From contig NMRA01000907.1 in the NCBI GenBank assembly GCA_002633005.1, positions 32,226 through 96,225 on the forward strand: DNA of 64,000 bases, read 5' to 3'. This document shows positions 7,507 through 61,580 of this stretch, in pieces (position 1 is the stretch's first letter; every line of letters starts with the position of its first letter). The DNA comes from Phoronis australis. Its lineage: Eukaryota > Animalia > Phoronida. The translations under genes and the position numbers were made by a program. The notes beneath the pieces were generated by a model. It did no database searches, was not told the DNA's origin, and saw nothing but the letters and a program-made list of their open reading frames with translations.

Positions 7507-7507
7507 N

Positions 7508-7947: not shown

Positions 7948-7949
7948 AC

Positions 7950-18401: not shown

Positions 18402-18574
18402 TTGAGTGTGCCCTTATCGAATCCAGTGGCTTGCTATGCGACCGCTGGTGGATGCGCTGTCTCAACTAAGTTCGTGTCTCATATTTCATGTCATAGGTAT
18501 TGTTAGACCGAAAATTTATAAAAACTTTAATTGATGCTCTTTTTTCAAACAGGGTTCTTCAGTTTGCTCTCAAC

Positions 18575-31918: not shown

Positions 31919-34869
31919 AATCCTGTTTTCAAAATTTGGCTAATTGTATCATAGTAGAAGCTAGAAACAAACTATTTGAATACTCGAAACATATTTAGTC
32001 CGAGTCTTTTGTAACAGAATCGAAGTTAAGAATGTATATTTTATTTAAGCTGAGTTTTCAAGTGAACCGTGTGTGAAGCTTAATTTATCTCGTTCTGAGT
32101 GATCTGTTTTGGCTCCGTTCAGAAGAGGAAATCTTCCGAATGCACTTAGAAAAACTGGTCGTTAGTAAACACTCCTGTAAGTGAAAGACTGCTTGTGCTG
32201 GCTATTCCGATTCTGTGGAGGATGGGTTACATTTTGTGTTCAGTGGTTGTTCTCTTTATAACTCACGGAGGTCTATTCAATTGTGTTTTCCTTCATGTCC
32301 CGAATTTTGCATTTTTCAGAAGATTAGATACGTTAAAACTGCTGTTTCAATACCTTGCCAAATATTTCAAGTCTGCTTTTGAACTTAGAAACCGTCGCAT
32401 TTATGGTAGGCCTACATGTACAGTGAGTTGTGTGGCTATAGTGAATAATAAGCCCAACTGGGCTGGGTACTTGTTATTCTGACGAATGTTACACCTATAA
32501 TTGTCTGAATTCATTGTGCTCACTATATTAAATTAATACATGCATACACACACACGCACACGCGTATACATACATCCGTACTTGCATGATTTCATACATA
32601 CATACATTCGGCATTCAATCATTCATAGTCATAAAATTACATACACATACAGTACACCTTTCCAACTGTTTTATTATCTTTTTAAAATTGCACATGTAAC
32701 GTAAGTTTATAAACGGGTCTCCGTCGGATCTACGTTTTCAGTAAGTAGTGGGGGTTAGGGTTCGCGGGAATCCGAGTCGCCTAGTCATCATGTTCATTAT
32801 CGCCACCTTTATCATCATGGTTATCCCCATCCCCGTTCAGGTCTTTTCAGTTAATTTCGTCAAGTGCCGCTCATCCGAGTACTTGTGCAGGGAACAAATT
32901 GACACCAGTATTATAATGGTTCTATTATTGTTCTAAATCGCAAGATGACTTCTTATACAGTAGCCTTGAAAACAGAAGGGATATGTCCATATCCTGGGCT
33001 TGGTTTCACACATGATTCTCATGTGCCGAATTCCTGATATAGGCACAGGTTCGAATATAGACGTGTGGGCCTAAATACGCGCATACATGGTCATAATATT
33101 TACACGTACGTACATGTACATGTTTGCACCAAACTCAAGCTGTGTTGTGGCTGTGAATGAAACCCTAATACACATAAATGAATTCTGTACTTCAAGAGCG
33201 CACTGTTAACATGGTCTCTCAGTAGACAGTGGGAGGATGACCAACAGAATGAAACAGGTTTTATAATTACAGCTTGCAAAATAAGCAAATTATATTCATT
33301 TATTGCGAATGTGTTGTTTTAATAGTTCAGCCTTGCAATATTTAACGACACCCTACTCTATATTCATAAGATTGCGTGAACAGCAAGAAATGAAAAGTTA
33401 CGCTAGATGGCGTGCACAACTCAGTATTACAATTGTTCGGGAGGTTGCCTGGTCAAAATAGTCGATGATTTTCCATTATTGGACCGTGAAATACAACGGA
33501 ACAGTTACATATATAATTACACGATATTTACAATGAAAATAGATTGAAGAAAATGAAAGAAACACGTAGTGTCAAAGCACAGTGGGGCAAATCGGTAACT
33601 ATATAATCACGTGAAGTGTAGACAATTATTACATATGTACATACGTCGTACAATTCCAAGTGGTGGCACTGCTGTGTACAAATATTAGAACTAGAGCGGA
33701 ACTCGGCCACCATAGTGAGACGTCAGCTGTCTTTTGATGGACATCCCGAAATTATGGACAGTATATTGTATATTGTTTACACAAATACTTACTGCAATAT
33801 AAAATCAACTCACCACACTTAAATAAAATCTGTTCAATAGCACACAATAATCCTACACTATGCTGAACTCGGCACTCGGATACTTTGTGAGGGTGAATTT
33901 AACTACATTGGCCAACATTGATTCGCCGTTGTCGAGCCAATACAGGAACACGAAACCACGCTGATCCGATGATATTCCAAACATAAATGTCTGATTTATG
34001 TTAACGTGCTTAACGAATTCGTTCGTCTCACATCCGGAGTGTCATTCTAAAGTACAGGCACGAACTTAGGCCGATTAAACTCCCTAAAAACCGAATGGAA
34101 AGGATTCATTTTGCAACCGAACTAATAGAAGATTTTCATAATTTGCCGAATTTCGTCGTCTTAAAATTATACAGACCAAAAGTTTTTGCATGGATTAGTA
34201 GAGAACACCTGCAAAACGAATCTGTCCTGCGAAAGGGTTACTTATTCACTAAAGCTCATACATAATTCATCTCATTCTTTCTCGGCAACGCAACGTTCTC
34301 ATTAGACTTCCTACATGTAGGAGCGATTATAGCGGAGTTTCCCAGACACACATCCCCAAAGACATATAGCTAAAGACAGGCACCCTGTTGTTGAAAGCAT
34401 AACCTTGTGATTTGATGCTCAACGTGTAGTCAACATTTAGGTAAAGTTTACAACAAAAAATCACTATGACTACGCTTGTACCAAGAATGGGATGCGGTCC
34501 GTAAGGAAATGTACAAAGTGGTAGTGACATTCGAAGTGATCAACGTGGGGAGTTTGTGGACGTTGGTCCTGTTCCTTTGTTTTATGCGGCCTGGAGAACG
34601 TTTCATGTTTCTTAGAGGAAGAGCGAAAACGAGTTGGTAACTCGTGCGACCAGTTTCCCAAAAGGTTACGTCATTAAATCGCAACAGTTCAGTGAAACAG
34701 GGTCCATAGGCCAATTTGTAATTCTTGCCAGTGCATTGCCTTATACGGACCGTATCCCATGTTGACATATCACTTTCTGTACTAGCATGACCATACTATT
34801 TTGTTATTTTTTTGTAAATTTTGGCCCCTTCAAGTTGATCATCAAACCATAAAGTCGTACCATCATAGA

Positions 34870-35187
34870 TCACAGTACACGATCTGGCCTTCCATGGAAA
34901 ATGTCCGCACACAAGTCAGGATAATCGTTTAGAAAGAAGTCATAAATGAACTCCATTCTCACTCCCTGTTCAATCTCTTTAAGATGAAATTCCCCAGGCG
35001 CCACCCTTATGTCATGTCCGCACGTGTGCATGACAGCCACGCACGCCTCCTGTTGGTGGTTAGCTACAAAGCCTGGGCTTCCTGAGCTGCCACTGCCGAA
35101 TTTTGAACTGGATTGGTAAAGCGCTCGCCGTCTGTCTGTTATGTTTTTGAACATGTCTTGTTTATATTTCCTGTGTAGCCCAAGGAG
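34870..35187 (-). CDS. Last exon: protease catalytic Ser (FGSGSSGSPGF) and C-terminus
   Basis: Acceptor ttacAG; LYQSSSKFGSGSSGSPGF...VAVMHTCG...IEQGVRMEFI parallels the FAM111 pattern GSSGSPVF/VAMH/IEFG; stop TGA. Confidence 0.92.
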   Translation of the reverse strand, partial: LLGLHRKYKQDMFKNITDRRRALYQSSSKFGSGSSGSPGFVANHQQEACVAVMHTCGHDIRVAPGEFHLKEIEQGVRMEFIYDFFLNDYPDLCADIFHGRPDRVL

Positions 35188-38100
35188 CTGTAAGTATAAC
35201 AATGTGACTTCAGTGGTAAATGACAGGTAAAAACATGTAACGTGTCGGTCACTGATGTAAGCAAACTATGACTGTCGATCATTGAAATAGTACAATATTC
35301 TAGTTACAAAAAAGGTTTAATTTTAAGAGTGTATTTAAAAGGCATAAAATACATAACTTGTTTCCAAGAGTTTAACTCATATGTCTATGCTCCCTTTTCC
35401 CTGAACTCAAGAGAACAACTGGCATGTTTAAATTCAGTGACATGGGTATTTTAAAAGCATTCAGCTGACAAATGTCCAGTAATCCTACCGTTATAAACCT
35501 CACCCTACAATGATCTATATAACTAGCCGAATTGGTTTTATTTAAAAATGGACAAAAGTATATTGTAGGTCACATTCCATTCATTCCGAATGACATAGTA
35601 AATGTTATCGTACCTTTTCTATATTTTGTGGCGATGTACAATCATAGTCAATAGTACACATCGTATCCAAAACTTTCCCATCGCCAACTGGATGTCCAAC
35701 AAAATGAATATATCGCTGTGCATCAATAGTTGCAAACTCAGTAATAGGCGGCGGAAGTGGGCATTCACTGATCTTCAGACATCGATTGAAGGCTCTTGGA
35801 AGTGATGCCTCGAAATTGAGGTCTAAGACGGCCACATCGAGGTCCTCGCAATGAGCCAATATGGCGCGGATAGGCGCTGCAACGACACCGTCCACTTGAC
35901 GAGGCTTGTTAAAATGAAACAGAGCCACGTTATGCTCGGCTGTAAAATACACATTAGAAATGACCAACAAACAGTTCAGAGCTTATAGGTTGTTACATAC
36001 TACCTAAACAAGCAGACTACAACCAAAAGATTCTGTTACCCGATGATACATGACAGAAGCTGTTAGGGTGTAGTGTAACACTGTTTCATTTGTAATGGAA
36101 GTTGAAAAGTACAAATTGAAACATTGCTTTCTTGTCTCTTAGCTTCTAGTGGCTGTCAATTGTAAGGTGTATCAACTCATAATGCATTATAGAACGCACT
36201 AAATGACTCCAATTAATGTGCTATATAGATTATCCCACATACATAGAAATACTACTGTCATACCCTATCCAGAATTCATTTCATCTGGGAATGTCCCGGA
36301 TGAGATGTGTTGTTGTTGTGTGCTTTGGCTTGTTGTTACATGACGTCATATCCATGTCAAGCCTACCTGCGCCTGTACAGCGATAGGTGATCTGTGAGGC
36401 TTAACAGCTAGTTCAGTTTTATTTCATATTGAATTGATAAGAACTTTCAGTTTTTGAGATGTTCAAGTTAAAAAGATGAATAATTCAATTATAAATGTTA
36501 GTCGGGAACTTTGAAACAATCTCTCCGGAAGTATAAAAGTTGATCAGTTTTGCTAGCAGCAGTTTGTCGCTTTAGCTTCGATGAATTTCGTAGTTTTCTA
36601 GGTCTATTTTCCTGTATTAGGTTATGAAACAGAACTAGTATTAGAAATGTTTCCCCTTGATGCCTTGATGGCAGAACTGGAAAGTAACGGTGGACACTGT
36701 GCCGTGTTTGAGATATCAGGAAAGTATGTCAAAAAGCAGATTTTACGCTACCAGGAGAGCCGAGGAACGCTGCGAGCGCACGCTTGTGTCGGTAAAAAGG
36801 TGCATGTTCGATGTTAGGTATCATTTCTTTGTGATTATCTTAGCTCTCAGTGTACAGTAGATATACTGCACATAAATGCTTCCATAAGAAAACGTTTTCG
36901 TTCGATTTGACTGTGCTGTAATATTGTTTTTCAACCCACTCATGGAATATAAAAGGCACCAAATGACTCCACTTGAACGGCAAAAACCTGTTGGTCCTTT
37001 AAACAAGGAAAGGAATCAACAATTAGTCGAACATGGCGGACTTCAAAGCTAGTCGACTGGACTGCTAAACCAAATTGCCGGTGATCAAACCTGTTGTTCG
37101 AACTTCAAAACGGAATGGTTTCACCCAAAAAATAGTTGACTGGACCAAAAACAGGATGGCCGGTCCCATAACCAGTTGTCCAGAGATCAAACAGGACGGC
37201 TGACTTCCTCAGAGACTCCCATTTAATTCGTTCTCAAGGATTCAAGTGATATCTACTGTCTGTGCACCCGCCAGCCCGTTTTAGGTGTGTTCAACCATTT
37301 TTTGTGTGCCGCCATCTGGTTTTAAGGTCCAACCACCAGGTTAGAACAAGGGGAATTTTATTTTTCAGTCCTGCCAACTTGTTTCAAAGTCCAGGCAAGT
37401 GGTTTTGAAGTCTGGGCAAAGGGTTTTGAAGTCTGGACAAGTGGGTTTGAAGACTGGGCAAGTGGTTTTGAAGACTGGGCAAGTGGTTTTGAAGTCTGGG
37501 CAAGTGGTTTTTAAGTCCGGGCAAGTGATTTTGTCCGACCATTTGTTGATTCCCCTCCTTGTTGAAGCTGCTTTCGCGCCCTGTTATCGAGTTAGATAAA
37601 AACGAAAATAGAATTAGGCATTGTATTCCCGTGAAGTCAGTGTCGTCAGATTATTTGCCGTGATAAAATTCTTTCTACTACAACGGAAAATATGGAAACC
37701 ATTAGTGACCCAAGAAAACGCTTCCAACGTTATTAGAGTTGGCCTTATAGACATCACACAGACTGGGTGGGCAGAACACATGGAGCTCACCTTGTCAACG
37801 TATGACGCCATATTGGAAAGTGTGACACAAAACAAAAATGTCGCAAAACACTGAGACACCTACAACATCAGTCAGGAAATATCCGGGGCTCGATGTGTTA
37901 CATGTATGCCTGCAGCCAAAGAGTTGAGTGTATTGGTCCTACCATTGAATCATAGCTTTTTGGTTCTGCCATAGAGTTTAGTGGTGCTGCTTAGGTTCTG
38001 TCACCGTAGTTTAACCAGTGTAACCATGCGTTGTTTCCACCCAAGTCTAGTCTTGTTGACTGAGATCATATCAAATCAATTTAAAAAATAATTATTGGCC

Positions 38101-41100
38101 AGCATATGATGTTATCGAATGTTGATGCTGTTTGTTAATTGTACTTAAGTAAATATGTGGTATTAATGACAATGATATGTTTTTACTTGTACTGAAAAAC
38201 AGAATCTGCATCATGATGCCCGCCACTCATCCAAATCAGTACATCTACGTGAGTAACATATTTTTATTGAAATACGTACTGCCTTAAAAACTCTTTCTGA
38301 ATATATATTCCCTAATCAGATATTTTTATGTTGTATAAAGGTAAATCCACAGTCTGTACTTATGTCGCACTACTTTGCTTGCCAACAGTTGTTTTGTGAC
38401 TTAAAAACTGCGTAAAAAGTGCAAAGTAACAAAACTAGCATACCTGCACAACTGAGCTGTGCACACGACTTATATTCAATTACGAAGAATTTTAAACTCG
38501 AAACCGAGTGGAAATATTTCCATCGGAGCCGGTGTTCATTAAACAATGACCCAGTGAAAAAAATGACTATGGGTATTTTTTTCAAGGGGTATAAATTCAA
38601 TGTGAAGAATTTGCCACTCGTGAATATTACGATCAAAAGTTGGAATATGGTACCGGTAAGCATGGCGCTACTAACACATAGTGTACACACAAGGTAATGC
38701 AACACAGTCACTGAATGTCCTGGCGCTCACTTAAGACTGGCCTTCTAGTTAGATAAGTTATAACGTTGTTTATAAAAGTACCTGAACCCCAATAGTTTTA
38801 AAACAACAGATCGCTATACAGCTCTACATTTTTATTTGTGAAAAAAATGCCTTAATTCAAACAATTGCAAGTTCGTACTTACGTTCATGACTAAGTTCTT
38901 TTAATACATGACAGTTTGTCATGATGTAAGTTGGACCAACACGGAACCCAGATCCCACTCCTGTCCCGTCTGCTCTTGCCAATAACGCTACAGATTGGAG
39001 AGCGTCAGAAAGAGACTTGTGTAAGTCCGCCCACATCACGTTCTTACCAGGAGCATGGAATTGTGTTGTTGAACCGGTTAATTGTGTCGGAGACTGTAGG
39101 AGTGGAAAGTAATCTGGAAAATATAGAGCTGGTTCATGTAGGAACTCTTACGCTGAAACTGGAATAGGAACAGGAATTATTTTATCAAATTTGACTCCTT
39201 CCTTAAACTTTACAATTACCTGACTGCCTGGTAACCACCTCCAGTATGTCCAAGTCGCCGTCGTTTCTCTTGTTTACAGTAATTGTGACCTGTCCCTTAC
39301 CGACGGCGATGGTTTGGCCTTTTGAGTAGACATAACGTTCGAGCATTGCACAAAACTGCTTTTCAGACGGGGCAGCCCTCGCCCCCAGACATTGATCGGA
39401 TGAACCCGCAGTCGCATGGGGTCTCATTTCACCACCACACTGGACACTTTGCTCCATTTTTTTGGATCGACGAGTCTGTTCCATGTGTTGCTGGAGGTGA
39501 CATTGTTAAATGTAAGTAATTGGCTATTTCACATGGATTGTAATCAATACACCTCAAAAGCTTTAAACAACATGCATCCCCAAGCACTACCTCAGGAAGT
39601 AAGTTTTTCACATGAAACCTCGTCAACTGAACTTCAAGGCCGCATGCGCAGTCGTGCAACTAGGTTTGAGTGTAGCAGTGGCCTCAGGTAACTCTCACCG
39701 AGTCGAAAGTTAACGAACTGAATTAGTTCTCGATGGTTCCCTGCGTGTCCGCAAGGGGGAAGAGAACTGCAGGTATTATTTAACAGTCCTCGGTAAAATT
39801 GATACACCTGGGTATTTGCCTTACACCTAAGTTAGTCTGGACGCAAGCTACGGAAACTTTGTCTCAGAAAGCACAGAAAGCAATTTTTTCAATTAAACGT
39901 TTCCAGTCAAAATGTGGACGACTTTCACCGAAAATTGCACTCGAGATTTTTGATAAAATGGTATACCCAATCATTAGCTATGGAAGTGAGATTTGGGGAT
40001 TTAAAGAATACACTAGTATCGAGCGCGTTCAATTGAAATTCTGTAAGCAACTGCTGGGTGTTGGAAGTAACTGTCCAAATCATGCTGTCCTGGGAGAACT
40101 GGGAAGGTATCCAATTTATGTAAAGCTGTTTGTTAAACTGATCAAGTATTGGTTTAAATTGTTAAAAATGCCAGCACATCGAAATCCAAAATCTGTCTAT
40201 GACAAGCTTGTCACATTGGATGAGGCTAGTAGGAAGAATTGGGCTTCATCTGTTAGGAATTTGCTGCAAAGGTATGGTTTTGATTTGGTATGGTACAATC
40301 AGGGAGTTGGCTGCGAAGCATCGTTTCTTGTCATTTTTGAGCAACGAATTAAAGATTGTTTTTTACAAGACTGGAGCTTTGCTGTGGAGAATAGCTCAAA
40401 ACTTAATACGTATTTCTAATTTAAAATTAATTTTGAAATGGAATCCTATCTGTTGCGTGATATTCCATATATCTTTTTAGCAGCTATGGCTAAATTACGT
40501 TTCTCCAACCACAACTTGATGATAGAGAAAGGTAGACATACTCTCGTGGACCAAAAAATACCGTGTGTGTTGTTTCTGTGTGTCCCTAATTGAAGATGAA
40601 TACCATTTTATATGTGTTTGTAAAATGTACTGGTCTCTGAGAACTGCATTTATACCCGAGTGGTGCTGGCGAGAACCAAATCAACATAAATTTGTAAAAC
40701 TTATAAAAATGTCGGAGCCCATTGCTCAGATTAATCTAATGAAATTTGTATTTCACGCCACTGCTCTCAGGGAAAAACTGCTCAGCGTTATCCTGTAAAT
40801 TTCATGTAACATGTGGGCCAAGGCCTTAAATGTTGAAATACATGAATTTATTTATAAAAGTATTATGTAGTGATATTGAATATAACCGACACCCTACATT
40901 GTATTCACCGTGGCCCCGACTTTCGTCAGCGTTTTGTTTCGTTCCCTTTTCATTATAAATCCGTCATGAGGTGTGTGGTCTAGCTCCGTCTGGCGATTTT
41001 TCAAGTTACTAAACTAAACGCCTGAACCCTGTGCATAGGGTTTTAGATGTGGCATGGTTTACTAAAACGCTTATTTTTACGTGTATACATGAGATTTTAT

Positions 41101-44100
41101 TTTGGCGGTTTGATCGTAGCAATATTAATGAGGGCCAATATTGACAACATGGTCGAGATATCAACAAAAACAACCAGAGTTATTAACAATGGTGAAATCC
41201 TCTGTGTACATGTATAACAAGTATCATAAAATGTTTTATTACTGTACCTTAAGGAGTTTCTTTATTGATTCCTCTTTACAGACATCGTAAGCAGTTCTTC
41301 CATCCTGTAAAATAGGTAATTAAATTCATATTAAAATTGACATTAAGTTTAAGTCAAAACTCCACTACACAAAACACGTGACCTCCATGCATATGTATTA
41401 TAGATACAGGTAAAGTTCATACATTTTGCCGTTTGTGCGAGATTTCATAGTTTGGAAGTTGAGACAACTCTTAGGCTTAAGTGAAAAATAAACTTAAAAC
41501 TGTTTCTTGGAGAGTCCAGGTTGTGAACCACTATATGTTCATGTCATCCATTTTGATGAGTTGTAAACAAAGCGTATGAATCTAATAAGGATGTTGAAAA
41601 TTGATTATCAGCTACAGAGTGATGTCATCAACTGGACCCAACACACACTCCGCAGCTTTTTCTGTTGTGTTTAAAAATATTTTTCAAGAGGCTCAACTCT
41701 CCTTCGCGTGGAGGATAGTTGGGCACCTAGTCAAGGAGAGTTGAGCTCACGGTTTCCTACAGCTTTGTATAACATGCACGATTCTTAATGAGCAGTTATG
41801 AAGAAAAAATGCTCTGCTGCTTTTGTCTTTAGCTTTTCACCCTTGAGTGTAAATGAAACTTGCTGAGTAACATTAACTAATTATATTTTGCTATATACGT
41901 CACAAAAAGTGACTAAACTTTTATCTTTCCGATTTCGTTTATAGTTGTAAATCTTACAGATACATGTAGCATAGTTTGCCAACAAATTCTTCCAAAACTG
42001 GCCAAGAATTGTATGGTGACACATGGCATACCTCCCCGCCAACTGGTGGTTTAGTAGCTGAGACAGCTATATTACAAACCCAGCACAATTAATGGGAAAA
42101 AATAATGTGGCAATATTTTACAATAATGTTAGGTTGCAAGTCACAATTCTTGCCTTATTTTGAAAATTCCAAAACCTGACCACGTACACATTTTACGAAC
42201 TATTCCGCTGCTATTTAAGCACTGTCAAAACGAACATTTTTGTCGCCACCAGTGTGTTAGTGATGAGTCTAATTATCTAGTGACTGATAACAACATCAGG
42301 CTGTGGCGTCCAGGCCGATGTAACTGCCTGCAACTGCATTGCGTCTTTGATCTGATCTTCAGACTTTACGTTACATACACCGGTCGAGTCGCCCAGCCTC
42401 GCCCGGTGAAAATAATCTGTTCACTTGGGATTCCTTTCACAAAGAAACTGCATCATCCGTTGTGCAATCGCATTAAAAGTAAGGCACCGGGTTACACAAC
42501 TTTGAGAGAAATAATTGAAATGCCAAGTAATTTGTCAAGGCTTTTTCTTGTCAAGTAAACATTCCAATCACTTAATTATCACCATTTATGAAAATGGTTG
42601 ACTTTTTCACNGTGTGTGTGTGTATATGTATCAATCCGTGGCAGAAATATACACAGTTCTGTAGTAGGGTTAAAAATAAACCACAGGGTTATAACACTGA
42701 AAATTGTTAAATAACCACTGCACAACAGAGAAACATAACTTAAAAACCATAAACAGACTTTCTAAATACAGGCTTGCACAGTCATGATTAAAAACCTGTG
42801 CATTTTATAATAATTGAAAAGAGAAAATCTAAACTTGTGCCTGGTGTAGGCGACTGTACGGCGTTGTTGGTCTGTTCTTAGTTTGTGTAGCCATAATACG
42901 ATGAATGTTTTCAGTCAGCCAGTTGGGTCATAGTATAAGAATCAATAAATCCATTACTGGACTTTCGGTACGTGGAGATGGCTACGTTGCGTCCTCCTCT
43001 CGAGGACTTCATCAGGCCACTGAGTTGTCACGTGAATTGTCATGTGATCTGTCGTACAGTTTCCGCGGGATTCTCTCCAGTGCCCTATCCCATGTCCTAG
43101 GTAAGTGAAAACCGCCTGTCTATTGAGGCTAGGATTCTCAATATTCTTGTAGATAGCTTCTTTGACCCCTCTCCAAAACCAATTCTCTTCTCTATCCAGG
43201 ATCTTCACATCTTGCATGGCGAAAGAGTGTTCTGTGGAATCCATGTGACTTAAGACTGCAGAACCATAGCAGTCCCCATAACTGGACCTCCGATGCTGGT
43301 TGAAACGACTTTTCAGGGCTTGTTTGGTTTCCCCAATATATGCTGCTCCACATCCCGGTTCCGAGCATGAAATGCCATACACCACATTTGATGTTTTCTC
43401 TTTGCTGGTTTTGTCTTTCACATTTAACAATTCACTCCTTATGGTGTTAAGAGCAATGTCGTGTCCTCTCATATGTGATTTGATCTGGTCAGCGATCCCT
43501 GGCACAAAAGGCAATGTTATCCTGATGTTTCCCCTATTATCAGGCTGCGTGTTCTGAGGCCTGACTCTGTCATGGTTTGCCTTGTGGAATGACCAGTTCG
43601 GGTAGCCACATCTTTTCAACACTGTTCTGTTGTGTTCTATTTCAAAATCAATGTCCTGCTCAGTGTTGGAGATGGTTCTCGCTCGATAGGCCAACGTTCT
43701 AATCACGCCTAGTTTGTGAATCAACGGGTGATTGGAGTCAAACGGAAGATAGTAGTCCATGTGAGTGGGCTTCCTATAAACCTTGGTCTTGAAATGCTTG
43801 TCTGTAACAGTCACTAAACAATCCAGGAACGGTAAAGTTTTTAGTCACATGAATTCCACAGAACACTCTTTCGCCATGCAAGATGTGAAGATCCTGGATA
43901 GAGAAGAGAATTGGTTTCGGAGAGGGGTCAAAGAAGCTATCTACGAGAGAATTGAGAATCCTAGCCTCAATAAACAGGGGGGCTAGGGTTTCACTTACCG
44001 AGGACATGGGATAGGGCGCTGAAGAGAATCCCGCGGAAACTGTACGACAGATCACATGACAAGTCACGTGACAACTCAGTGGCCTGATGAAGTCCTCGAG

Positions 44101-47100
44101 AGGAGGACGCAACGTAGCCATCTCCGCGTACTGTATGTCCAGTAATAGATTTATTGATACTTATACTTTGTGTAGCAATGTTACGATCAAGCCAGTGACT
44201 TTTATTTTACTGAGTGCTCTGGGAAGGTACATGCAATAAGGAAACGACTGCTTGTATAGGTTCACGTAAGAGGTAGATCATTTTTGATGAGATATATATG
44301 TTAAATGAATAATTCTTCGAACTCGTTGTTCATTTAAAACACATTTATTGCAGTATGAATTAAAGACGGAGTACAACACTCTCTACGCAGTCACAGCGGC
44401 CTTTAATGATTTGAAGCTTCACAACCGCTGCGTGTCCAACCTCTGACGCCATGTGTAGCGGTGTGTCACCCCACTACAGCAAGTGAACAAACATGCCGGG
44501 GGGATTGTTGGTCAGCATTACATATACAATAGCGAAATGCGTGGCTCAACAGGGCTTCACGTTTTATATTTTTCAAGTTCAAAACTTCACCATCAGTTGC
44601 ATATTGATGACGTGGGTGGATCCACAGTGTGTGACTACAACCTAACATTTAAACTAGCACACAACTTGAGCGACATTCCTTAAATGTTCGTCTGATGTGT
44701 TGTAGCCGCGCATTGAAAAGATAATTTAAATTATACCACAATATTAGCTTCGAATGGCAGATACAACCGTGAAGTAACCCATAAAGTTATCTCACTAGTG
44801 AGATAACATTTTGGCGGGAAACCGAGGCCGGGCCTCAACAGTTGCGAGCCGCGCAATAATCGCATGTTCAGCAAAGAGCATTACACCGACAATTATACTC
44901 TATGAAAAATAAGACGCATAATTTCCATAAAAACGATATTTTAATACAGTGAAATTTCTCTCTCGTGTTCTCTCACTTGTAAATCACCGACCTCCAATTT
45001 GAATGCAGGTGTCGTGTGGTCGGGATCCCTTGACTTGAGCATTATAGTCAGTTACTAGTGGTAACCTACTTTAGCAGACGATATATTCCCGGTCCAAGCT
45101 TAGCGTGATAAAATGTGTAGTAAGCTATAACAGTTGCTAAACCGTAATTTACAGATTAACTTTCTTTCTATTTTGTTTTATTTTTCAATTAGTTTTGAGT
45201 AAAAACATTATTTTACAAAAATATCTCGTCTTTTCTTAAAAGGTCACGACCTGCGACCCTGGGCCTCTGACATAGAAAGTAGTTACAAAGCCGAGGCGAG
45301 TCGAGAAAGGTAGATTGATTCATTGCATTGTTTCTCGTTCAGTATGTGGTATAAATAGATTATTACATGTTCTCAGTCGTTATCCCCCTTATATAGAGCC
45401 CTCGTGGATTTTGTAGAATTATCACCCTCGGAGCTAACGCCCCTCGGGCGATAATTCTCCAAAATCAACTCGGGCTGTAGATAACGGGGGATAACGACTT
45501 CGCCATGTAATAATCTATATATATGACAACTTGATGTTATACATAACAACAGAGCGACATTGATTTAGTGAGCACTGTGGAAATGCAAGTAAATAACAAA
45601 CTCATTGTACAACTCCATGTCACCTGAAAACCGTTTTTAATTACTTCAAAATCACGTGCTCGTCACGTCACGTGCACGTCACGAGGAGTGTAAGGAAATG
45701 TCAAGTTTACAATAAAATCATTTATCCTGATGAATTTATTAAAACACCGAATGATTCAGACTTGTCACATCTTGTATGTTGATCATCGTTGTGTAAACAA
45801 CTAGTTCAACTAAACACCCTGTGTGTCATTAATTACCTCATCGCGGACACTCACGTTGGCCCCGTGTTGGAGGAGACTCTGCACGACGGCTGTACGACCC
45901 CACAATGATGCCCGGTGCAGCAGTGTCCGGCCATCCTATGTAATATATAATGGAGATGTGTGAATGGACGACCAACGTTTAGAGCTAATTAACATACACG
46001 GGAGAAAGTGAACTTGTAAGGTGACATCAATGAAACATCACTGACCCCTCTAAGGTGCTAATACTTGTAATGATGTCAACAGAGAAATGTTAAGTTTAAG
46101 AACAAAACAACAGAACCTGGTTAGTGTTTCGTTTCTTCTTACTGGACGGTAACACGGGTAGTAATTGTGCGCTGTAACGTGTTGAACAACCTCCAGTGTA
46201 ACGTATGGTTTGGTCTAACGAATTAGGAGTATTTTAATTAAGTTATGGGACATTTTACATGTACATGTAAGTCACGATGCATTATCTCTTCCAGTCTACA
46301 CAGCTTTAGCGGTTCATGAACAGAAAGCAGACGACATTTAATTTGACATTGTTTAGGAACATTAAATTGTGAAAATATCAACAAAATTTGTGCCTGTCAG
46401 TTTTAAACATTGTTTATGCAAACAACTAGATCAACCAAATAACCTGTGTGTCATTAATTACCTGACCACGGACATCCACTGTGGCGCTGTGTTCAACTAG
46501 ACACTCCACTATCTGTGTATGACCATACTGTGCTGCCCAGTGCAGCGGTGTCTGGCCCGACTATGTAATATATAATGGAGATGTGTGAATGGACGATCAA
46601 CGTTTAGAGCTAATTAACATACACGGGGGAAAGTGAACTTGTAAGGAGGCATGAATGAAACATTACTGACCCCTCTAAGGTGCTAATACTTGTAATGATG
46701 TCAACAAGGAAATGTTAAGTTTAAGAACAAAACAACAGAACCTGGTTAGTGTTTCGTTTCTCCTTGCTGGACGAAAACACCGGTAGTAATTATGCGCTGT
46801 AACATGTTAGACAACCCCAGTGCAATGTATGTTTTTGTCTAACGAATTAGGAGTATTTTAATTAAGTTATGTGACATTTTACCTGTACATGAAAGCCACG
46901 CTGCATTATCTCTACAAGTCCACGCAGCTTTAGCGGTTCATGAACGGAAAGCAGACGACATTTATTTTGACATTGTTTAGAGGGAACAATAAATTGTGAA
47001 AAGATCAACAAAATTTGTCCCTCATCAGTTTTAAACATTGTTTGTGTAAACAAGTAGATCAACCCAATAACCTGTGTGTCATTAATTACCTTATCACAGA

Positions 47101-49694
47101 CATTCACTGTGGCGCTGTGTTCAACTATACACTTCACTATCTGTGTATGACCATACTCTGCTGCCCAGTGCAGCGGTGTCCGGCCCATCTATGTAATATA
47201 TAATGGAGATGTGTGAATGGACGATCAACGTTTAGAGCTAATTAACATACACGGGAGAAAGTGAACTTGTAAGGTGACATAAATGAAACATCAGTGACCC
47301 CTCTAAGATGCTAATACTTGTAATGATGTCAACAGGGAAATGTCAAGTGCAAGAACAAAACAACAGAACCTGGTTAGTGTTTCGTTTCTTCTTACTGGAC
47401 AATAACACGGGTAGTAATTGTGCGCTGTAACGGGTTGAACAACATCCAGTGTAATGTATGGTTTGGTCTAACGAATTAGGAGTATTTTAATTAAGTTATG
47501 TGACATTTTACCTGTACATGTAAGTCACGATGCATTGTCTCTACCAGTCTACACAGGTTTAATTAGCGGTTCATGAACAGAAAGCAGACGACATTTAATT
47601 TGACATTGTTTAGGAACATTAAATTGTGAAAATATCAACAAAATTTGTCCCTGTCAGTTTTAAAAATTGTTTATGCAAACAACTAGATCAACCAAATAAC
47701 CTGTGTGTCATTAATTACCTGATCACGGACATCCACTGTGGCGCTGTGTTCAAATAGACACTCCACTATCTGTGTATGACCACACAGTGCTGCACGGTGC
47801 AGCGGTGTCCAGCCCTCCTATGTAATATATAATGGAGATGTGTGAATGGACGATCAACGTTTAGAGCTAATTAACATACACGGGGGAAAGTGAACTTGTA
47901 AGGAGACATGAATGAAACATTACTGACCCCTCTAAGGTGCTAATACTTGTAATGATGTCAACAGGGAAATGTCAAGTTTAAGAACAAAACAACAGAACCT
48001 GGTTAGTGTATCGTTTCTTCTTACTGGACGGTAAAACGGGTAGTAATTGTGCGCTCTAACTTGTTCAACAACCTCCAGTGTAATGTATGGTTTGTTCTAA
48101 CGAATTAGGAGTATTATAATTAAGTTATGTGACATTTTACCTGCACATGTAAGTCACGATGCATTATCTCTACCAGTCTACACAGCTTTAGCTGTTCATG
48201 AACGGAAAGCAGACGACATTTAATTTGACAATGTTTAGGAACATTAAATTGTGAAAATATCAACAAAATTTGTCCCTGTCAGTCTTAAAGATTGTTTATG
48301 CAAACAACTAGATCAACCAAACAACCTGTGTGTCATTAATTACCTGATCACGGACATCCACTGTGGCGCTGTGTTGAACTAGACACTTCACTATCTGTGT
48401 ATAACCTAACTGTGCTGCGCAGTGCAGCGGTGTCCAGCCCTCCTATGTAATATATAATGGAGATGTGTGAATGGACGATCAACGTTTAGAGCTAATTAAC
48501 ATACACGGGGGAAAGTGAACTTGTAAGGAGACATGAATGAAACATTACTGACCCCTCTAAGGTGCTAATACTTGTAATGATGTCAACAGGGAAATGTTAA
48601 GTTTAAGAACAAAACAACAGAACCTGGTTAGTGTTTCGTTTCTCCTTGCTGGACGAAAACACCAGTAGTAATTATGCGCTGTAACATGTTAGACAACCCA
48701 GTGTAATGTATGTTTTAGTCTAACGAATTAGGAGTATTTTAATTAAGTTATGTGACATTTTACCTGTACAAGAAAGTCACGCTGCATTATCTCTACAAGT
48801 CCACGCAGCTTTAGCGGTTCATGAACGGAAAGCAGACGACATTTATTTTGACATTGTTTAGGGACATTAAATTGTGAAAATATCAACAAAATTTTGTCCC
48901 TGTCAGTTTTAAACATTGTTTATGCAAACAACTAGATCAACCCAAAAACATGTGTGTCATTAATTACCTTATCACAGACATTCACTGTGGCGCTGTGTTC
49001 AACTAGACACTCCACTGTCTGTGTACGACCCCACAGTGCTGCACAGTGCAGCGGTGTCAGGCCCTCCTATGTAATATATAATGGAGATGTGTGAATGGAC
49101 GATCAACGTTTAGAGCTAATTAACATACACGGGGAAAGTTAACTTGTAAGGTGACATTAATGAAACATCACTGACACATCTAAGACACTAAAATACCTGC
49201 AATGAGTTCAACTCAAGTTTTACAGGTGATTCGAAAACGTTGAAACAACAACAGAACATTTTGCAGACGTGGACTGCCAGAAGTTTGCTGAACGCCTCCA
49301 TAATTCACAGAGACCCCTCCAGGTTGTGTTTATACTGGCTTCCTATTTAATATAATGTTGTAATATTGAAAGGGCGATTGTCATTAAGAATAGAAAGGTA
49401 TCAACGTTGAGTCGGCAAAGATATTGTTGATAGGATTCAAATCTCAGTGCTTCTCAAGATGCATGTACCGCGTACAGAATGAAAAATACATGTCGAAGTC
49501 AGGAGAGATAAAATATGTATTTACACAAAACATATTTAGTTAAATTTTAGATAGCATACAGTGTTTGTAAAGTGGTCTGAATTAGTTTCTATTACCACGT
49601 CTTGCATGTCTACATCGGCCCCACCCTGTAACAATAACCTCGCCACCTCTGTGCTGCCCCGCCATGCTGCTTGGTGTAGTAGGGCCTTGCGGTC
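34870..49694 (-). CDS. Multi-exon gene: ankyrin-repeat array plus FAM111-like trypsin-fold serine protease (at least 13 exons, about 664 aa; start exon uncertain)
   Basis: Exons 49596-49694, 48968-49066, 48344-48442, 47719-47817, 47090-47188, 46462-46560, 45837-45935, 44375-44473, 41248-41304, 39220-39490, 38883-39113, 35614-35939, 34870-35187. All have AG/GT borders and compatible phases, giving one stop-free frame with the His/Asp/Ser triad. Confidence 0.85.
35614..35939 (-). CDS. Protease exon with catalytic Asp (EDLDVAVLDL) and HFVGHP motif
   Basis: Acceptor ttttacAG phase 1, donor AAG/GTacga phase 0; LDVAVL and VGHP.G..K..D.C are Trypsin_2/FAM111 motifs. Confidence 0.92.
37381..37533. 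repeat. 21-bp minisatellite, about 7 copies (gtggttttgaagtctgggcaa), intronic
   Basis: Tandem units visible directly. Confidence 0.9.
38883..39113 (-). CDS. Protease exon with catalytic His (GSGFRVGPTYIMTNCHV)
   Basis: Acceptor attttccAG phase 1, donor GTaagt phase 1, 231 nt open. Confidence 0.92.
39220..39490 (-). CDS. Linker exon (QHMEQTRR...VVTRQS)
   Basis: Acceptor cacctccAG phase 0, donor CAG/GTaatt phase 1; phases join the cap exon to the protease exon. Confidence 0.8.
39795..40850 (+). mobile_element. 5'-truncated non-LTR retrotransposon 3' end (RTE-X/L2-like; clade uncertain), intronic and antisense to the host gene
   Basis: YGSEIWG, IERVQLKFCK, AVLGELGRYP, IEKGR, IEDEYHF; one stop and one frameshift. 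Confidence 0.85.
41248..41304 (-). CDS. Ankyrin C-cap exon (DGRTAYDVCKEESIKKLLK)
   Basis: 57 nt, tttacAG and AAG/GTacag, phase 0-0; typical terminal partial ankyrin repeat. Confidence 0.85.
42978..43020 (-). ncRNA. Minimal type I hammerhead-ribozyme-like motif (variant core)
   Basis: tggc-CTGATGA-a-gtcctc(gagag)gaggac-GCAACGTA-gcca in the pLTR. Confidence 0.6.
44079..44121 (+). ncRNA. Minimal type I hammerhead-ribozyme-like motif, second copy
   Basis: Same motif in the inverted pLTR. Confidence 0.6.
44375..44473 (-). CDS. Ankyrin exon 8 (WGDTPLHMASEVGHAAVVKLQIIKGRCDCVESV), atypical 3' end
   Basis: Acceptor ctgtAG and TPLH motif; GT at exactly 99 nt, but the donor (GTactc) is weak. Confidence 0.65.
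45355..45518. mobile_element. About 164-bp fold-back (palindromic) MITE
   Basis: atagattattacatg...catgtaataatctat; the two halves are imperfect reverse complements along the whole length. Confidence 0.85.
45837..45935 (-). CDS. Ankyrin exon 7 (DGRTLLHRASLWGRTAVVQSLLQHGANVSVRDE)
   Basis: 99 nt, catAG and GTaatt, phase 0-0. Confidence 0.92.
46462..46560 (-). CDS. Ankyrin exon 6 (SGQTPLHWAAQYGHTQIVECLVEHSATVDVRGQ)
   Basis: 99 nt, catAG and GTaatt, phase 0-0. Confidence 0.93.
47090..47188 (-). CDS. Ankyrin exon 5 (MGRTPLHWAAEYGHTQIVKCIVEHSATVNVCDK)
   Basis: 99 nt, catAG and GTaatt, phase 0-0. Confidence 0.93.
47719..47817 (-). CDS. Ankyrin exon 4 (EGWTPLHRAALCGHTQIVECLFEHSATVDVRDQ)
   Basis: 99 nt, catAG and GTaatt, phase 0-0. 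Confidence 0.93.
48344..48442 (-). CDS. Ankyrin exon 3 (EGWTPLHCAAQLGYTQIVKCLVQHSATVDVRDQ)
   Basis: 99 nt, catAG and GTaatt, phase 0-0. Confidence 0.93.
48968..49066 (-). CDS. Ankyrin exon 2 (EGLTPLHCAALWGRTQTVECLVEHSATVNVCDK)
   Basis: 99 nt, catAG and GTaatt, phase 0-0. Confidence 0.93.
49596..49694 (-). CDS. Ankyrin exon 1 (DRKALLHQAAWRGSTEVARLLLQGGADVDMQDV)
   Basis: 99 nt, ttctacAG and GTaata, phase 0-0. Confidence 0.92.
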
Positions 49695-50667
49695 CTGTAG
49701 AAACAATGAACAAGTTATAGCAAGACTCACAATCACTAACTTTACCGTGCATCTTAATTACTAACAACCAAAACTTTGAACTTGCACATAAAATTATCAA
49801 AGCTACTCCCTGTTTAAGAGGTAATATAACAGTCGTGGTTAGAATAGAATTCTCAGAGTGAAGACACGGATGTTCTTTTATAATATGAACACTTTTATCA
49901 AAATCCGAGCAACTGGTTGTAGCTAAGACTAACTATCATAGTTATTGACAAAAACGTGACCTTGATATTCACACAGAATAATCAACTTTAAGAGAACGAT
50001 TTCACCAGCTACACCAGCTACACGGGACGAAATGAAGCTGACCGAGAAATCATTTTTGTTAAAAATATGAGGTAATAGGCGACAGCATTGAAGCAAGATG
50101 CTTAGTACATGAGAGATGAGAGAACATCAATACAAGGTTAATATATCAGAATGGGATATCAAAATATTTCAGGAAAAAAATCGCTTGGTCAATCTTTGGT
50201 TTAGGGTGCATTAATAGTTGGGATCATAGCCACTGGAAAAACACTACAAATTAAACACATGTTGAAACACATTTTACCAAAACCTTTTTTGATCAAGATC
50301 TCTGTTCAGTGGATCAATCAATCATGTAGTTTCCATTTCGACACAAATCCAAACAGTCAGTTGTTCTGCTGCACTGAGACTTGATAAACGACGAAGGAGT
50401 GGTCGGCCAGACGAAGCTTGCTATTAAAAAGAGGGCTTTGCCGGCCAGTTTTCACGTGTACACGCGATCAATTGATACATTTGCCTGTTCTTGGATTTAT
50501 TTAAAGGGGCATTTCCTATTCGTAAGAAACTAATTAAAGTCCTTGTCTAACGCGTTGTTAACCCTTATTACATGGTTAGAAGATGTTATAAGGATCCAAG
50601 AAGTACCTACCCCATAACTAATACACGATCCGTACTCGAAAACAGTTTAAATGAACGCGCCACTCAC

Positions 50668-50694
50668 GATTCGCACCCGAAGAAACACCGCCAT
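50668..50694 (-). CDS. Candidate first coding exon (MAVFLRVRI) of the ankyrin-protease gene
   Basis: ATGGCG start and a consensus GTGAGT donor in phase 0; lies next to an N at 50696. Confidence 0.35.
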
Positions 50695-53510
50695 TNTTAC
50701 AAGGAAAAAATGGCGGCGTTCAGGACAAGTTCCTGAACTGATGAGCCGGAAATGTGGGTACGGAAATAACCGATGACAACCGGTAATCATACGCTCAGAG
50801 AGAAGGGTCAAATACTGTTAAAAAATCGCTTTTGGCAAGAAAGGCGAAAAGAATATAAAGAAAGGGTGTCGAAAATAAGAATTTATGTAGTAAGTATTTT
50901 CGGATACTAGAACCACATGGGCAGTTTGCAACAAGGACTTTAAAGATACCATGACCAATCTTATCAAAACTGATTGCATTTTTAGTTGTTTTTTTTGGCA
51001 CTCGTTTCGTCCTCTTTTCACGCGCAGGCCGTCTGCATGTTGTGTTTCGACATGGATATAATTTTCTATGTTGTTACTGAAAGTTTGAAACGATCGATTT
51101 TCATAATAATAAATTTAACAGAATCGTACAAGCACTGAGAAATAAAAGAAAAACATAAAAACGCAAGGCAACAAAATAAAAATACAAGTGCAAGACACGG
51201 ATAACATAAAAAGTCAAAGACTCATTTCCATTATGCCGCTAATTTGTCTTATCCAACATTTTGTTTTAGATCATGGTGATAAAAAGTAAAGGTTAAAAGT
51301 GAGGTGTCAAAGAACTCCATATGTAACGGAACGACTACGACAGCTTTTATGACAAGCAACCAAGGAGTAAAAAATAAAACATCTTCAGCATTAGCTTCTT
51401 TTAGATTCTTCATCACAAGCAGCTTATATTACGGTTACTTGGACAAAAATAGAAAAAGACTCACTGATACGTTGAAAATATGACGAGTAGTATTCAAATA
51501 ATGAACAATATCATAACAGTAAAACAGGATCAATCCCTAAAATAATAATAACATATCGTACACCAAAACATTTGTTTGGATGAAAACTATCTAAATAAAA
51601 ACTTCAGTAGTCATTAAAATTTCTCCCTCGTACAAAAAGTCCCGAATACGTCTAATAATAGAAAAGCTCTGGAAATCAGACATTCATTTTTACATTAACA
51701 CTGAAATAAAAACGACTCCTCATGATGAAGATCCAGCAAACGTCATTGTGGTCGTTTAGAGAAATATATATTATTCAGTTGGCAACGTATCATTGACGTT
51801 TAGAAGAGCTTAACTGACCAATCAGAACGCAGTATTCCTGACGCACCTTCGTCTGCGTTTCCAAGCCGCCATGGTACCCGACAAACAACACGTTGTCGGT
51901 AAAGCTTATTTTCGTCTATAGCTCAAGAAATTGTGCGATAAGAATGGTGAAACGGTGTTGAGATGGCGTGTGTAATTCTCACACAGTCGTTATACACCTC
52001 GAGAAGGATATCCCGTCACTTTTTGTGCATTCACTAAGCCGGAAAGTAATGTCGATTGTGCAAATGACGGATCAAACTGTGTGGACGGCCACACGAGCAG
52101 CTAAATATTAACTTGGCAATGTTGCTGGATTACTCGAAGGTTAAACACAAATATATTTGTTCCACATTTCAGTTTGTCTATCTGATTTTGGCTCTGGAGT
52201 TTCACTCGTCTGGGCGCCTTTGTCTCGGCATCTGCTGGACATCCCAGCACTAGTCTTGTCTCCGGAAATTGTTGTTTTTAAGGACACCTTGATTTTTCAT
52301 TCATTTTGACCTGTAATGGACATCGTTTTGTTTCGTAGCAGAGGTACGTTTTCTGTTAACTATATATCCGTAGGCTGGTGTTCAACTGAACTTCTCACCA
52401 AAATTGACAGATTCGATCGGTACAGGGAGGGGCACTAGGTTACTGAATCAAAGCCTCGTTCGAGCTGTTGTCATGAAAAAATAAACAGTTGAATTACTTT
52501 TTTTAGAACCTCTAGTATATACACTACGGCTGTAGAGTTAGGGAGAGTTCATTTTGTAGTTGGTTAAACATGATACTCGGATTTATGAAGCTTTAGAAAA
52601 TAATTTTAGCTATTTTTGTGAATGGCCATTTTTGCCAGTACACCAGGCTTGTCATCTTTTGTAACCATACCACGACTTAGTGATCATGCTACTTAAATGA
52701 AAGCTACCATTATGCAACGAAACAACAAAAAAATGGGAAGTTCATCAGAAGGTTGGCTTTACTTAAATGTCTTTATGATGCATTGAATTACGGCTAATTC
52801 CATGCATTAATTTAACTTAGACACAGCCCTAGACTTAGTGGAGCTAACTGCTTTCCTAGGACAAGACGAAAATGTGCCTGAGCTATGAACCCGATTTCTT
52901 TAATCAAAATATTACGCTCGAAGATTAGAAAAGTATAAACAAGGTTATCGACTCGACCTTACACGGAGAATCCCATCAGTTGCGATCTACACTGAACTTT
53001 TCATTTGGCGGAATTTAGCAGACGGCAGAATAATAAAGATATCGGCGAATCTTCATTTTGTTCGAAATATCCGGAAATATATGAAATCGTACAGATAATT
53101 CGACTTTAAGGTACATACCCAGCTTTACATTAACATATCGCATCAGAGGCCTTGTGTCAGTTTTAAAGTGAATTAAGGTGAATCCCGTGTGGGGTTCTTC
53201 GGATTTTCGCTGGCTCCGAAATACTTTTCCTCGAACACTTAATTCATCATTGTGGCCTTTACAAATTCCCAAATGATGAACGTACGATTCTCAACTGAAA
53301 AGCATCGCATGTTGTTTTTGTCAAAGTGTTTTCGGAAAGTGCAAAATACACTCATCAATTCCACCAGGAACGTGATTTAGCGACAGTGTATTTGCCTTTG
53401 ACATCTTGTTCGTTTGTTGGGTGTCACGTGACTTTTCGTAAAGGGGCGGAGCTTGCGATAGGTCAATTCTCGTTAAATGGCACACTTCAGAGTGTTGCAA
53501 AGAGTTCGAC

Positions 53511-56493: not shown

Positions 56494-57399
56494 GTTCGAC
56501 TGTTCAAGCCCTAATTCTCATACGTAAAAATAGATGGCGCTGCCTACATACGAAGGCGCGTGAAAACTGTGCTGCTGAAATTTCTGCTATAAAATATCAC
56601 TTGTGCTGAAGACGGTTACTTCAAATGACGTCAGTTAAAGGAGGAGTGGATAGAGATTCCGTAGGTGATAAAACTGGGTGAGTTCATGTTTCAAAGTAGT
56701 TAACATAGAACATTCACTTGTCCTCAAGCGGCGAACGACCGTTGCGCAATTATGACGGACATTAAACCTATCCGCAGTGTATTACGTAACTGTCACAACC
56801 GTCAAAATAGTGTGTCAATTTTTGGCACCTGGGACACTTAAGCCCACAAGTTAATCGCCAGACCCAGTCTTTTGTCCGATGTCACGACGCAAATGCCAAT
56901 TATCTACCCCTCTGAATGAATACATTAATGTAAACCCTTAACATTATTATTAACGACGTCACCAACATATCGGTCTTAAGTTATCTGTTGCTAGAACAAC
57001 TTTCGAAAATTTAGGTGAATTTATCCCACCATGCTCGTCTAAACTAATCAAGCTAAAGACAAACCTTGGTTTAACAACAACGTCAAATGACAGATAATAA
57101 GCAAAACAAATCGATAACTTCAAAAATATAGCATATGCCATCTGAATACGAACAGTCCAGATCAATTGAAAAATGCCCAAGAGTCCGTTGCAAAAGTCGG
57201 ACGTTTGCTAGAAAACAATGATGTACATGTACATGTAAACTACAGCCTGAAAATGAAGGTACCGACCATGTAACAAATAAAGTAATTCAATTACATCTGT
57301 AAATATAAAAGATATCTCTCCTACAACTACTCATTTATTCAACAAAATTTTACTAACAATTTGAAAAATGGATTTCATATTTTATAATTAATTTCTAGA

Positions 57400-58500
57400 T
57401 GTGACATGCGCGTTTAACATGGTTCCACATGACCACGATGAACTCCTCATGCACAAAATTCTCTCTTATGGAATATCGATCACTCTGCACACACTCTTCA
57501 CTTTATATTCCTCCAATTGCGTAGTACCACGGGTTTGTCAACGTAGAGTTAAGCAAGCTAATGTAGTGTCTAGGGGCCTCTTTTGTTTCTGTTCTACATC
57601 ACACTCCTTCAGACATTAGCTCGAAAACCTTCATCTATATGCTGATGAAACAGCCATATTTTATTCTAGGTACCCAAATTACACACGGACCCATTTTTAA
57701 ATGAACTTAATGGTGAAATTTTTCTCCAAAAACATTCTCACTGACATCTAGGAATTACAATACACTATGAACTTTCGTTTTTACCATTCTGTGAGCAAAA
57801 CGAAATAAATTTTGACCAATTTATGGAAAATTGAATCTAGTCTTAAATGTTCGTTGCTCTTTGAATGCATATGTTATTTAGTACTCAGCCGTTTAGACTT
57901 TGGAGACATAATTTTCCAAACAGATGGTGCTGGACGTTTGGTTCAGCTGGACAGAGTGCAATATCAGGCTGCTATAACCAATACTGGTGTCATAAAAAGT
58001 TCGAACACAATAAAAAATCTCAATTGGTCCAAACTGTTAATGCCATGAAAACTTCATTGAATTGTTTAAACACATCAAGCTCTAAACAAAGTAAATAATA
58101 TATTCAATAAAAAAACTTTCGAAAATGACAAAGTGCGAAACACTACATTAGGTCGACGTGCGATGATATCTGTCTTAGTTCAACCGTGTCACAGTCGAGT
58201 CATTCTTAAATCCACAATAATCTTTTGCATAAATACGTGGGACACCCTTCCTACAGACATTTTAAATAGCAATTCTGTATTGTTACTGTGTTGAATTTTC
58301 ATCATTACTTTTAGCAAAAAATTAATATTATTTCTCGATCTACATTCAGTCATATACACCGTGCAAAAGGATTTTTTCTGAAGAGATTTTTATCAAGATT
58401 ATTGTTTTCAGAATTTGTCTCCTTTACACGAATGTGGATCTGCCCAAGTTGGTCTGTTTCTAATTGTTTATATTGTCATTGATCGTTTCGTGGTCCGTTG
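57400..58500 (+). mobile_element. Highly decayed CR1-type LINE RT/3' fragment
   Basis: HKILSYGIS, LHLYADET, SRLDFGDIIF, LDRVQYQAAI..TG remnants. Confidence 0.65.
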
Positions 58501-60924: not shown

Positions 60925-61580
60925 CATTATAGCATTTCGTGAATGCCTCAAGACCTCTGATATCTATTAAACATTACGTCAACGTATACCAACGTGGTAC
61001 TCCATTGTCCTGGCGAAACAAGGACTCCTGAACGAAACAATGGGTCGGCTATTTTTACTGTTACTTATAAACAGATCTTTTTGCGAAAACTACGCTTTAA
61101 AATAATGTGTTTTTTTTTTTGTTCGCACGATACAGGTCGCAATTTTCGTCCGATCATCACGAAATTTACACATAACACGTATTTCTGGAAGTACAGGAAG
61201 CCTATCGTTTTTCGTCAAAATCAGATCCAAGAGGGCGGCTGTGGCGGCCATTTTGTTTTCATTTAAAAGTTCAAATGCTTCTGGAGGCTACATTTTTTAC
61301 GTAAAAGGCTAAAAATCGGCACAGTAAATGAACTGGAAGTTTTCTACGAGTATACTGGAAATTGTTTACTTCCGGTTAAAGATGGCGGAAGTATTGGCGA
61401 TCGCGCATGCGCACCTCGATTTTGGCCTAAAGGCAGGAATTCCGCGAACCCCGTTTTTATAATAAAAGGTCCACATTCCCAACAAATCGAGCCCCCTATA
61501 TTTTAGGCTGGGTGCGCGCATGTCAGGGATATAACCTCTCTGGTTCATTCCCTTTACATATTGCACGCTATTATTTTTCG
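60925..61580 (+). mobile_element. Probable non-autonomous Helentron-like interspersed repeat
   Basis: aattttcgtccgatcatcacgaaattt, ggcggccattttg and acttccggtt motifs; ends approximate. Confidence 0.35.

Follow-up and report, generated by a model that had tools for sequence, protein, structure and literature searches.

An animal gene joining a diversifying ankyrin array to a predicted trypsin-fold protease, a candidate intracellular sensor of non-self

Introduction

Repeat arrays whose contact residues diversify are described in two groups of receptors. In the fungal NLRs with high-internal-conservation (HIC) repeats (HET-E/HNWD), repeats that are 80-100% identical carry a few hypervariable contact positions under diversifying selection (PMC13449251). 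In the brown-algal ROCO proteins, in-phase arrays of one leucine-rich repeat (LRR) per exon expand through duplication, and the sites under positive selection are found on the concave face (PMC11378527). Here we describe a gene on contig NMRA01000907.1 of Phoronis australis in which an array of ankyrin exons precedes a predicted trypsin-fold protease. The window analyzed is a stretch of 64,000 nucleotides of animal genomic DNA with spliceosomal introns, and all coordinates are positions within it. An initial annotation of this window, made from the letters alone, had proposed that the ankyrins sense a ligand and gate a protease of the FAM111 type.

FAM111A restricts vaccinia virus and interacts with the viral protein I3 (PMC10469034), and its cleavage of substrates needs dimerization (PMC10920703). 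According to one proposal, the FAM111 proteases originated in defence and took up their role at replication forks only afterwards; FAM111-like proteins of coral and lancelet lack ubiquitin-like domains (UBLs), and the word "ankyrin" occurs nowhere in that paper (PMC9798293). Bacterial conflict systems with trypsin-like effectors, and ankyrins in expanded animal immune architectures, have been described, without the present fusion appearing in the passages concerned (PMC8195603). Among the matches listed, no title or abstract opening describes an ankyrin-FAM111 fusion; subscription papers, InterPro and UniProt lay outside this scope, and absence from print is not established.

Results

Ankyrin and protease exons form one transcribed, stop-free frame

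The gene lies on the minus strand, and all of its exons were found at the expected positions with AG/GT ends (Table 1). Each of the seven ankyrin exons measures 99 nt and is in phase 0. When 12 exons are joined by their coordinates they yield a stop-free frame of 631 amino acids, closed by a TGA at 34872-34870. A join of 13 exons, which includes 44473-44375, is also stop-free and encodes 664 amino acids. The frame begins at the splice acceptor at 49694, where there is no ATG, and the 664 residues are therefore not the whole protein.

Four of four RNA-type runs (X1 to X4, from two studies) aligned to positions 33500-52500. X1 includes assembled contigs and we guess that it is an RNA run, for which its spliced contigs argue. 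Stranded reads over the ankyrin and protease bins run as expected for minus-strand RNA, at a low depth of about 1-20. The depth of first-mate plus reads compared with the opposite orientation was 1.1-20 versus 0-1.4 in the ankyrin bins, and 4.8-14 versus 0-0.3 in three protease bins. Joint figures given here refer to the 15 of 82 joints listed, and five of these fall on predicted joins. The join 35187/35614 was present in X1, X2 and X3 (6+4 raw reads), 35939/38883 in X1 and X3 (5 raw reads) and 39113/39220 in all four runs (5+7+1 raw reads). The joins 39490/41248, between cap and linker, and 41304/45837, between ankyrin 7 and cap, were present in an X1 contig only. This contig of 425 nucleotides consists of 42 + 56 + 271 + 56 bases across ankyrin 7, the cap, the linker and protease exon 1, and 2 of its 271 linker bases differ from the window. 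It omits the eighth ankyrin exon of the initial annotation, so that ankyrin 7 is spliced directly to the cap. Among the 15 joints listed, none uses that exon, and the six ankyrin-to-ankyrin joins do not appear at the exact predicted pairs.

Inspection of the eighth exon shows that it has decayed. Its match to Pfam Ank is limited to residues 2-25, the frame slips after Gly25, and it possesses the weakest donor of the gene (GTT/GTACTC). The supported model is therefore one of 12 exons, 7 ankyrins and 631 amino acids, open at its 5' end. The initial annotation had counted 13 exons and eight repeats in about 664 residues; the continuity of that frame stands (664 residues were computed), but the exon number falls to 12 and the repeat number to seven. 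The cap-linker join from 41248 to 39490 that it had singled out for confirmation was seen, in the X1 contig. As a whole, the stranded and spliced reads from two studies establish that the locus is not silent and that the gene is real, spliced and transcribed. That ankyrins and protease share a transcript is supported, on the basis of one contig from one run.

The known part of the protein has no membrane segment within its 631 amino acids, the highest 19-residue hydropathy being 1.1. A strict ATG-to-donor scan of 49750-64000 found no candidate first exon, and an ankyrin HMM (hidden Markov model) search in six frames found no ankyrin exons beyond the eight already known. Reads run off to either side of a single N at 50696, so that a gap may be concealed immediately before ankyrin exon 1; other single Ns are at 7507 and 42611.

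X1 also contains variant junctions, with two forms at the linker/protease boundary (depths of 46 and 41) and two after ankyrin 1 (79 and 34). Some of its ankyrin joins follow a different order, one of them running backwards, and its last exon has a loose end of diverged sequence. These variants suggest several alleles or paralogues, as a lead only, since near-identical exons can be misplaced.

The recently duplicated repeats diversify at their predicted binding face

Tests for selection were confined to units 2-6; the older copies, namely ankyrin 1, ankyrin 7 and the decayed exon, were left out. In these five units the introns are 92-96% identical and the exons 85-90%, corresponding to an exon distance of 0.117 versus an intron distance of 0.064. 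The 10 unit pairs together contain 111 non-synonymous differences (Nd) and 5 synonymous ones (Sd), with proportions of 0.148 (pN) and 0.021 (pS). To avoid double counting of pairs, varying columns were also counted. Non-synonymous columns varied at 21 of about 75 sites and synonymous columns at 1 of about 24 (p=0.012). The same 21 of 75 exceeds the proportion of varying intron columns, 68 of 524 (p=0.0015), and synonymous and intron columns do not differ (p=0.34). Under a one-ratio codon model, omega=1 is rejected (likelihood ratio test statistic 17.2, p=3.4e-5), with omega running to its bound. The sister units 2 and 5, with introns only 2.9% apart, differ in their exons by 12 non-synonymous and 0 synonymous changes.

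The positions of these changes are informative. In the ANK-N5C library, six randomized positions make up the binding surface (PMC4308713), and such ankyrin positions lie on the concave binding face (PMC8229355). A minimum of 23 amino-acid changes separates the units, and 11 of them fall on the six randomized positions (p=0.0018, or p=0.019 with framework positions taken out of the null). With a DARPin set of contact positions, the count is 12 of 23 (p=0.0003; 0.0045). There is thus good evidence that the array is diversifying at its predicted binding face, which supports a role in recognition. The pattern supports the recognition part of the proposed ligand-sensing array, for a ligand that is itself putative.

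The C-terminal domain is a predicted trypsin-clan protease with resemblance to FAM111

In the 631-residue model, His409, Asp452 and Ser561 occur in the order of a catalytic triad with a GxSGxP motif, and TNCHV, LDVAVL, VGHP, GSSGSP, VAVMH and IEQG were all found. Protease exon 1 matches Pfam Trypsin_2 with E=0.002, under the cut-off, and has weak MarP/HtrA matches (E=0.002-0.15). The other two protease exons lie nearest to trypsin-clan clusters in language-model features (top scores 0.91 and 0.95), and for each of them 10 of the 10 best named matches belong to one family or clan. These profile signals are weak but concordant and support a predicted assignment to the trypsin clan (clan PA / S1); the reading of this domain in the initial annotation, with His in TNCHV, Asp in LDVAVL and Ser in GSSGSP, is supported to that extent. 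Single-exon AlphaFold models had pLDDT values of 36 and 43, too low for a comparison of folds.

Protease homologues were sought with single-exon pieces of 76-108 amino acids, never with the whole domain. These retrieved 0 homologues among 47, 145 and 188 candidates, which at this query length are weak blanks. None of 1.84 billion representatives matched such pieces at E<=0.001 either, which at their length does not show novelty. Three single-exon sequence searches of the PDB at E<=10 returned no FAM111A chain, and otherwise only noise at E>0.5 or nothing. A single metagenome locus obtained from 121 pattern matches was rejected as a chance match, being bacterial-looking and weakly aligned, without catalytic context. 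PADLOC assigned 0 families to four of four exons, Nal1_C had no Pfam match at E<=1 in single-exon scans limited by fragment length, and neither a SOCS box nor a tail anchor was evident in the known part; the protease cassette is probably of a type other than NAL1. The linker has no Pfam match over its 90 amino acids. Its second half (39221-39490, minus strand) resembles a small helix-plus-hairpin module with IAVG; a RHIM-like reading of this motif was set aside for want of Pfam support and because the spacing is off.

The Gly-His-Pro motif is one that we take to resemble FAM111. A C-terminal Trypsin_2-type domain with His, Asp and Ser is common to FAM111A, FAM111B and this protein (MEROPS S1, PF13365). 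Residue spacing was compared with the FAM111A numbering of PMC10920703. By spacing, candidate equivalents of Phe536, Gly539, His556 and Glu573 occur here within a few residues. Gly at Ser-2 and Phe at Ser-5 are alike in both proteins; a His follows the Ser by 19 residues, compared with 15 for H556, and a Glu follows that His by 19, compared with 17 for E573. Leu is found at the offsets of the FAM111A dimer residues V347 and V351. The spacing from His to Asp is 43 in contrast to 54, and that from Asp to Ser 109 in contrast to 102. F537/F538 are replaced by Gly/Ser, so that specificity may differ. The known part here has an ankyrin array in the place of PIP and UBL domains; the vertebrate-type layout, with two UBLs and in placental mammals a PIP, gives way to ankyrins, cap and 90-residue linker. 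The FAM111-like proteins of coral and lancelet share this lack of UBLs (PMC9798293). A FAM111-like identity is plausible and is the best lead; membership is not established and no true relative was retrieved. The FAM111-type label comes from motif resemblance and residue spacing.

Coordinates of the gene and its surroundings

Table 1. Features of the ankyrin-protease gene, in window positions
Feature	Position	Strand	Remarks
Ankyrin exon 1	49596..49694	-	99 nt, phase 0, older divergent repeat, starts at acceptor; Pfam Ank 2.8e-7
Ankyrin exon 2	48968..49066	-	first of five recently duplicated exon+intron units
Ankyrin exon 3	48344..48442	-	recently duplicated unit
Ankyrin exon 4	47719..47817	-	recently duplicated unit
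Ankyrin exon 5	47090..47188	-	recently duplicated unit, sister of exon 2 unit
Ankyrin exon 6	46462..46560	-	recently duplicated unit
Ankyrin exon 7	45837..45935	-	joined straight to cap exon in X1
Tandem array of ~626-bp exon+intron units	45789..49212		self-BLAST
Decayed ankyrin exon (eighth of the initial annotation)	44375..44473	-	skipped in X1 contig
Cap exon	41248..41304	-	57 nt, half repeat
Linker exon	39220..39490	-	271 nt, no family match
Protease exon 1	38883..39113	-	predicted amphipathic pre-barrel helix; catalytic His 38910-38908
Protease exon 2	35614..35939	-	catalytic Asp 35838-35836; VGHP
Protease exon 3 to stop	34870..35187	-	catalytic Ser 35085-35083; VAVMH, IEQG
3' untranslated region	33509..34869	-	minimum extent; X1 contigs 33509-33893 and 33864-35013 plus stranded reads

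The transcript end may be signalled by an AATAAA at 33304. Several repeats and mobile-element remnants lie within the introns. The intron that follows the decayed ankyrin exon contains a Penelope-like retroelement fragment (42929-44206, minus strand; GIY-YIG E=0.0015) with direct repeats of about 330 bp at 42929-43257 and 43836-44170, and its insertion may be related to the decay of that exon. A joint at 43003/43919 in opposite-strand reads of X2-X4 probably derives from other copies of this element. Broken frames at 39784-40590 (plus strand), in the cap-linker intron, presumably resemble the C-terminal part of a retrotransposon of the type without long terminal repeats (non-LTR); they have no Pfam match. 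A 174-bp imperfect palindrome at 45350-45523 lies in a high-copy repeat with deep coverage of both strands and is probably similar to a miniature inverted-repeat transposable element (MITE). Seven copies of a 21-bp tandem repeat (37387-37533) lie in the intron that separates the first two protease exons.

Elsewhere in the window there are two intronless frames for G-protein-coupled receptors (GPCRs) of the rhodopsin family, at 18497-19609 (plus strand) and 29693-28710 (minus strand), with Pfam 7tm_1 matches of E=3e-35 and 2e-19. An 18-bp tandem repeat is present at 15809-15915. Decayed ORF1 (open reading frame 1) and endonuclease pieces resembling a long interspersed nuclear element (LINE) occupy 2900-9200 on both strands, and within this region there is a local duplication of about 850 bp (6691-7506 / 7950-8794).

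Discussion

We propose that this transcribed, predicted trypsin-fold protease with its diversifying ankyrin array is an intracellular sensor of non-self, in which a bound target would switch on the protease, and we hold this with a confidence that falls just short of evenly balanced. Tandem duplication of the phase-0 exon+intron unit adds whole repeats with the frame kept, as the array itself shows. By the statistics given above, new copies change almost only by amino-acid substitution, concentrated at the ligand-contact positions, and in one contig the array shares a transcript with the protease. The protein is probably intracellular because there is no hydrophobic segment in the known 631 residues. 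By analogy with FAM111A, a multimeric or polymeric foreign target would bring protease domains together through the pre-barrel helix and so order the oxyanion hole. Once active, the enzyme might cleave either the target it has bound or an executioner protein of the host. What we infer here is an immune function, a ligand and the gating.

Several points weigh against this proposal. The known part lacks an NTPase switch, and the unseen 5' end could change the architecture or the location of the protein. The link between ankyrins and protease is one assembled contig, with 0 raw reads of X2-X4 at 39490/41248 and 41304/45837. The selection signal comes from five units of 99 nucleotides with about 24 synonymous sites, gene conversion breaks the tree assumption of the tests, and CpG-type changes occur at four variable codons (3, 8, 14 and 31). 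When ankyrin 7 is the reference, pN/pS is only about 0.9-1.5, and with ankyrin 1 it is about 0.5-0.8. The FAM111A residues K345 and K348 correspond to Ala and His here, the match of the dimer helix rests on ungapped offsets, and Ser occupies the position of F538, which lines the S1 pocket.

The alternative that survives best is a restriction factor that targets substrates, in which the protease would be competent at all times and the variable ankyrins would serve only to recruit foreign proteins for cleavage, with no gating. This would explain the same diversifying signature, it accords with the absence of a nucleotide switch, and FAM111A itself restricts vaccinia and interacts with I3 (PMC10469034). 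However, FAM111A requires dimerization for cleavage (PMC10920703) and the present protein has a predicted helix whose Leu spacing matches; an unguarded intracellular protease would also presumably be costly. We consider this alternative unlikely, though a serious competitor. When the gated sensor and the ungated restriction factor are taken jointly, a role in defence is probable.

Considerably less likely is an arms race outside immunity, with a self partner driving the diversification of the array, for example in allorecognition, in gamete compatibility or through conflict with a selfish element. Fungal HIC repeats with the same signature do serve allorecognition (PMC13449251), but the window shows no linked gene for such a partner, the intact long frames identified there being the two GPCRs. 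We give a slightly lower probability still to near-neutral turnover of repeats, by unequal crossing-over, relaxed constraint and CpG decay, with a protease that is housekeeping or fading. One repeat exon has already decayed, any ankyrin tolerates surface change, and there are the CpG-type changes noted above. Relaxation, however, cannot lift non-synonymous change above the intron rate (p=0.0015). At codons 5 and 25, two CpGs that have a silent side are intact in five of five units, and the exons of units 2 and 5 differ by non-synonymous changes exclusively. That the fusion is not the main product, ankyrins and protease being usually on separate transcripts or the contig coming from a paralogue, is very improbable: the missing raw reads at the two bridging joins, and an identity of no more than 90-95% for most aligned reads (2855 of 4015 in X2), speak for it, but the bridging contig differs at so few linker bases, both joins are canonical with the frame kept, and every coding bin has reads from one and the same strand.

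Returning to the gated sensor, a more ambitious extension of it is possible, although we regard it as doubtful. The gene may represent a family of animal immune receptors that is as yet undescribed and does without an NTPase. Its ankyrin exons would form a natural, DARPin-like library, differing among alleles or paralogues in how many exons there are and how they are ordered, and perhaps also through splicing, and would act through ligand-induced dimerization of a FAM111-type protease; antiviral or anti-parasite proteolysis would then be the ancestral FAM111 job. The gene offers a test of the proposed defence origin of the FAM111 proteases (PMC9798293), and the six variable positions per repeat indicate where to look for a ligand.

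Comparison with the fungal and algal systems places the locus more exactly. No match to NACHT/NB-ARC was found and there is no room for one between ankyrins and protease; with no NTPase in the known part, this is not an NLR. The initial annotation had likened the gene to an NLR-type sensor-effector without an NTPase; the repeat signature is of that kind, and the protease would be gated by a putative ligand. Like the fungal HIC repeats, exons 2-6 combine high identity (85-90%) with a concentration of their variation at contact positions; unlike the HIC NLRs, the known part lacks NACHT/NB-ARC, the effector is a C-terminal protease and each repeat has its own exon. The likeness to brown-algal ROCO lies in in-phase repeat exons that expand by duplication. 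The differences are that the repeat is an ankyrin and not an LRR, the partner is a protease and not ROC-COR, and the genome is that of an animal; alternative splicing is not established here. If our proposal is correct, this animal would have coupled diversifying repeats, as used by fungal NLRs and algal ROCOs, directly to a protease, with no NTPase switch between them.

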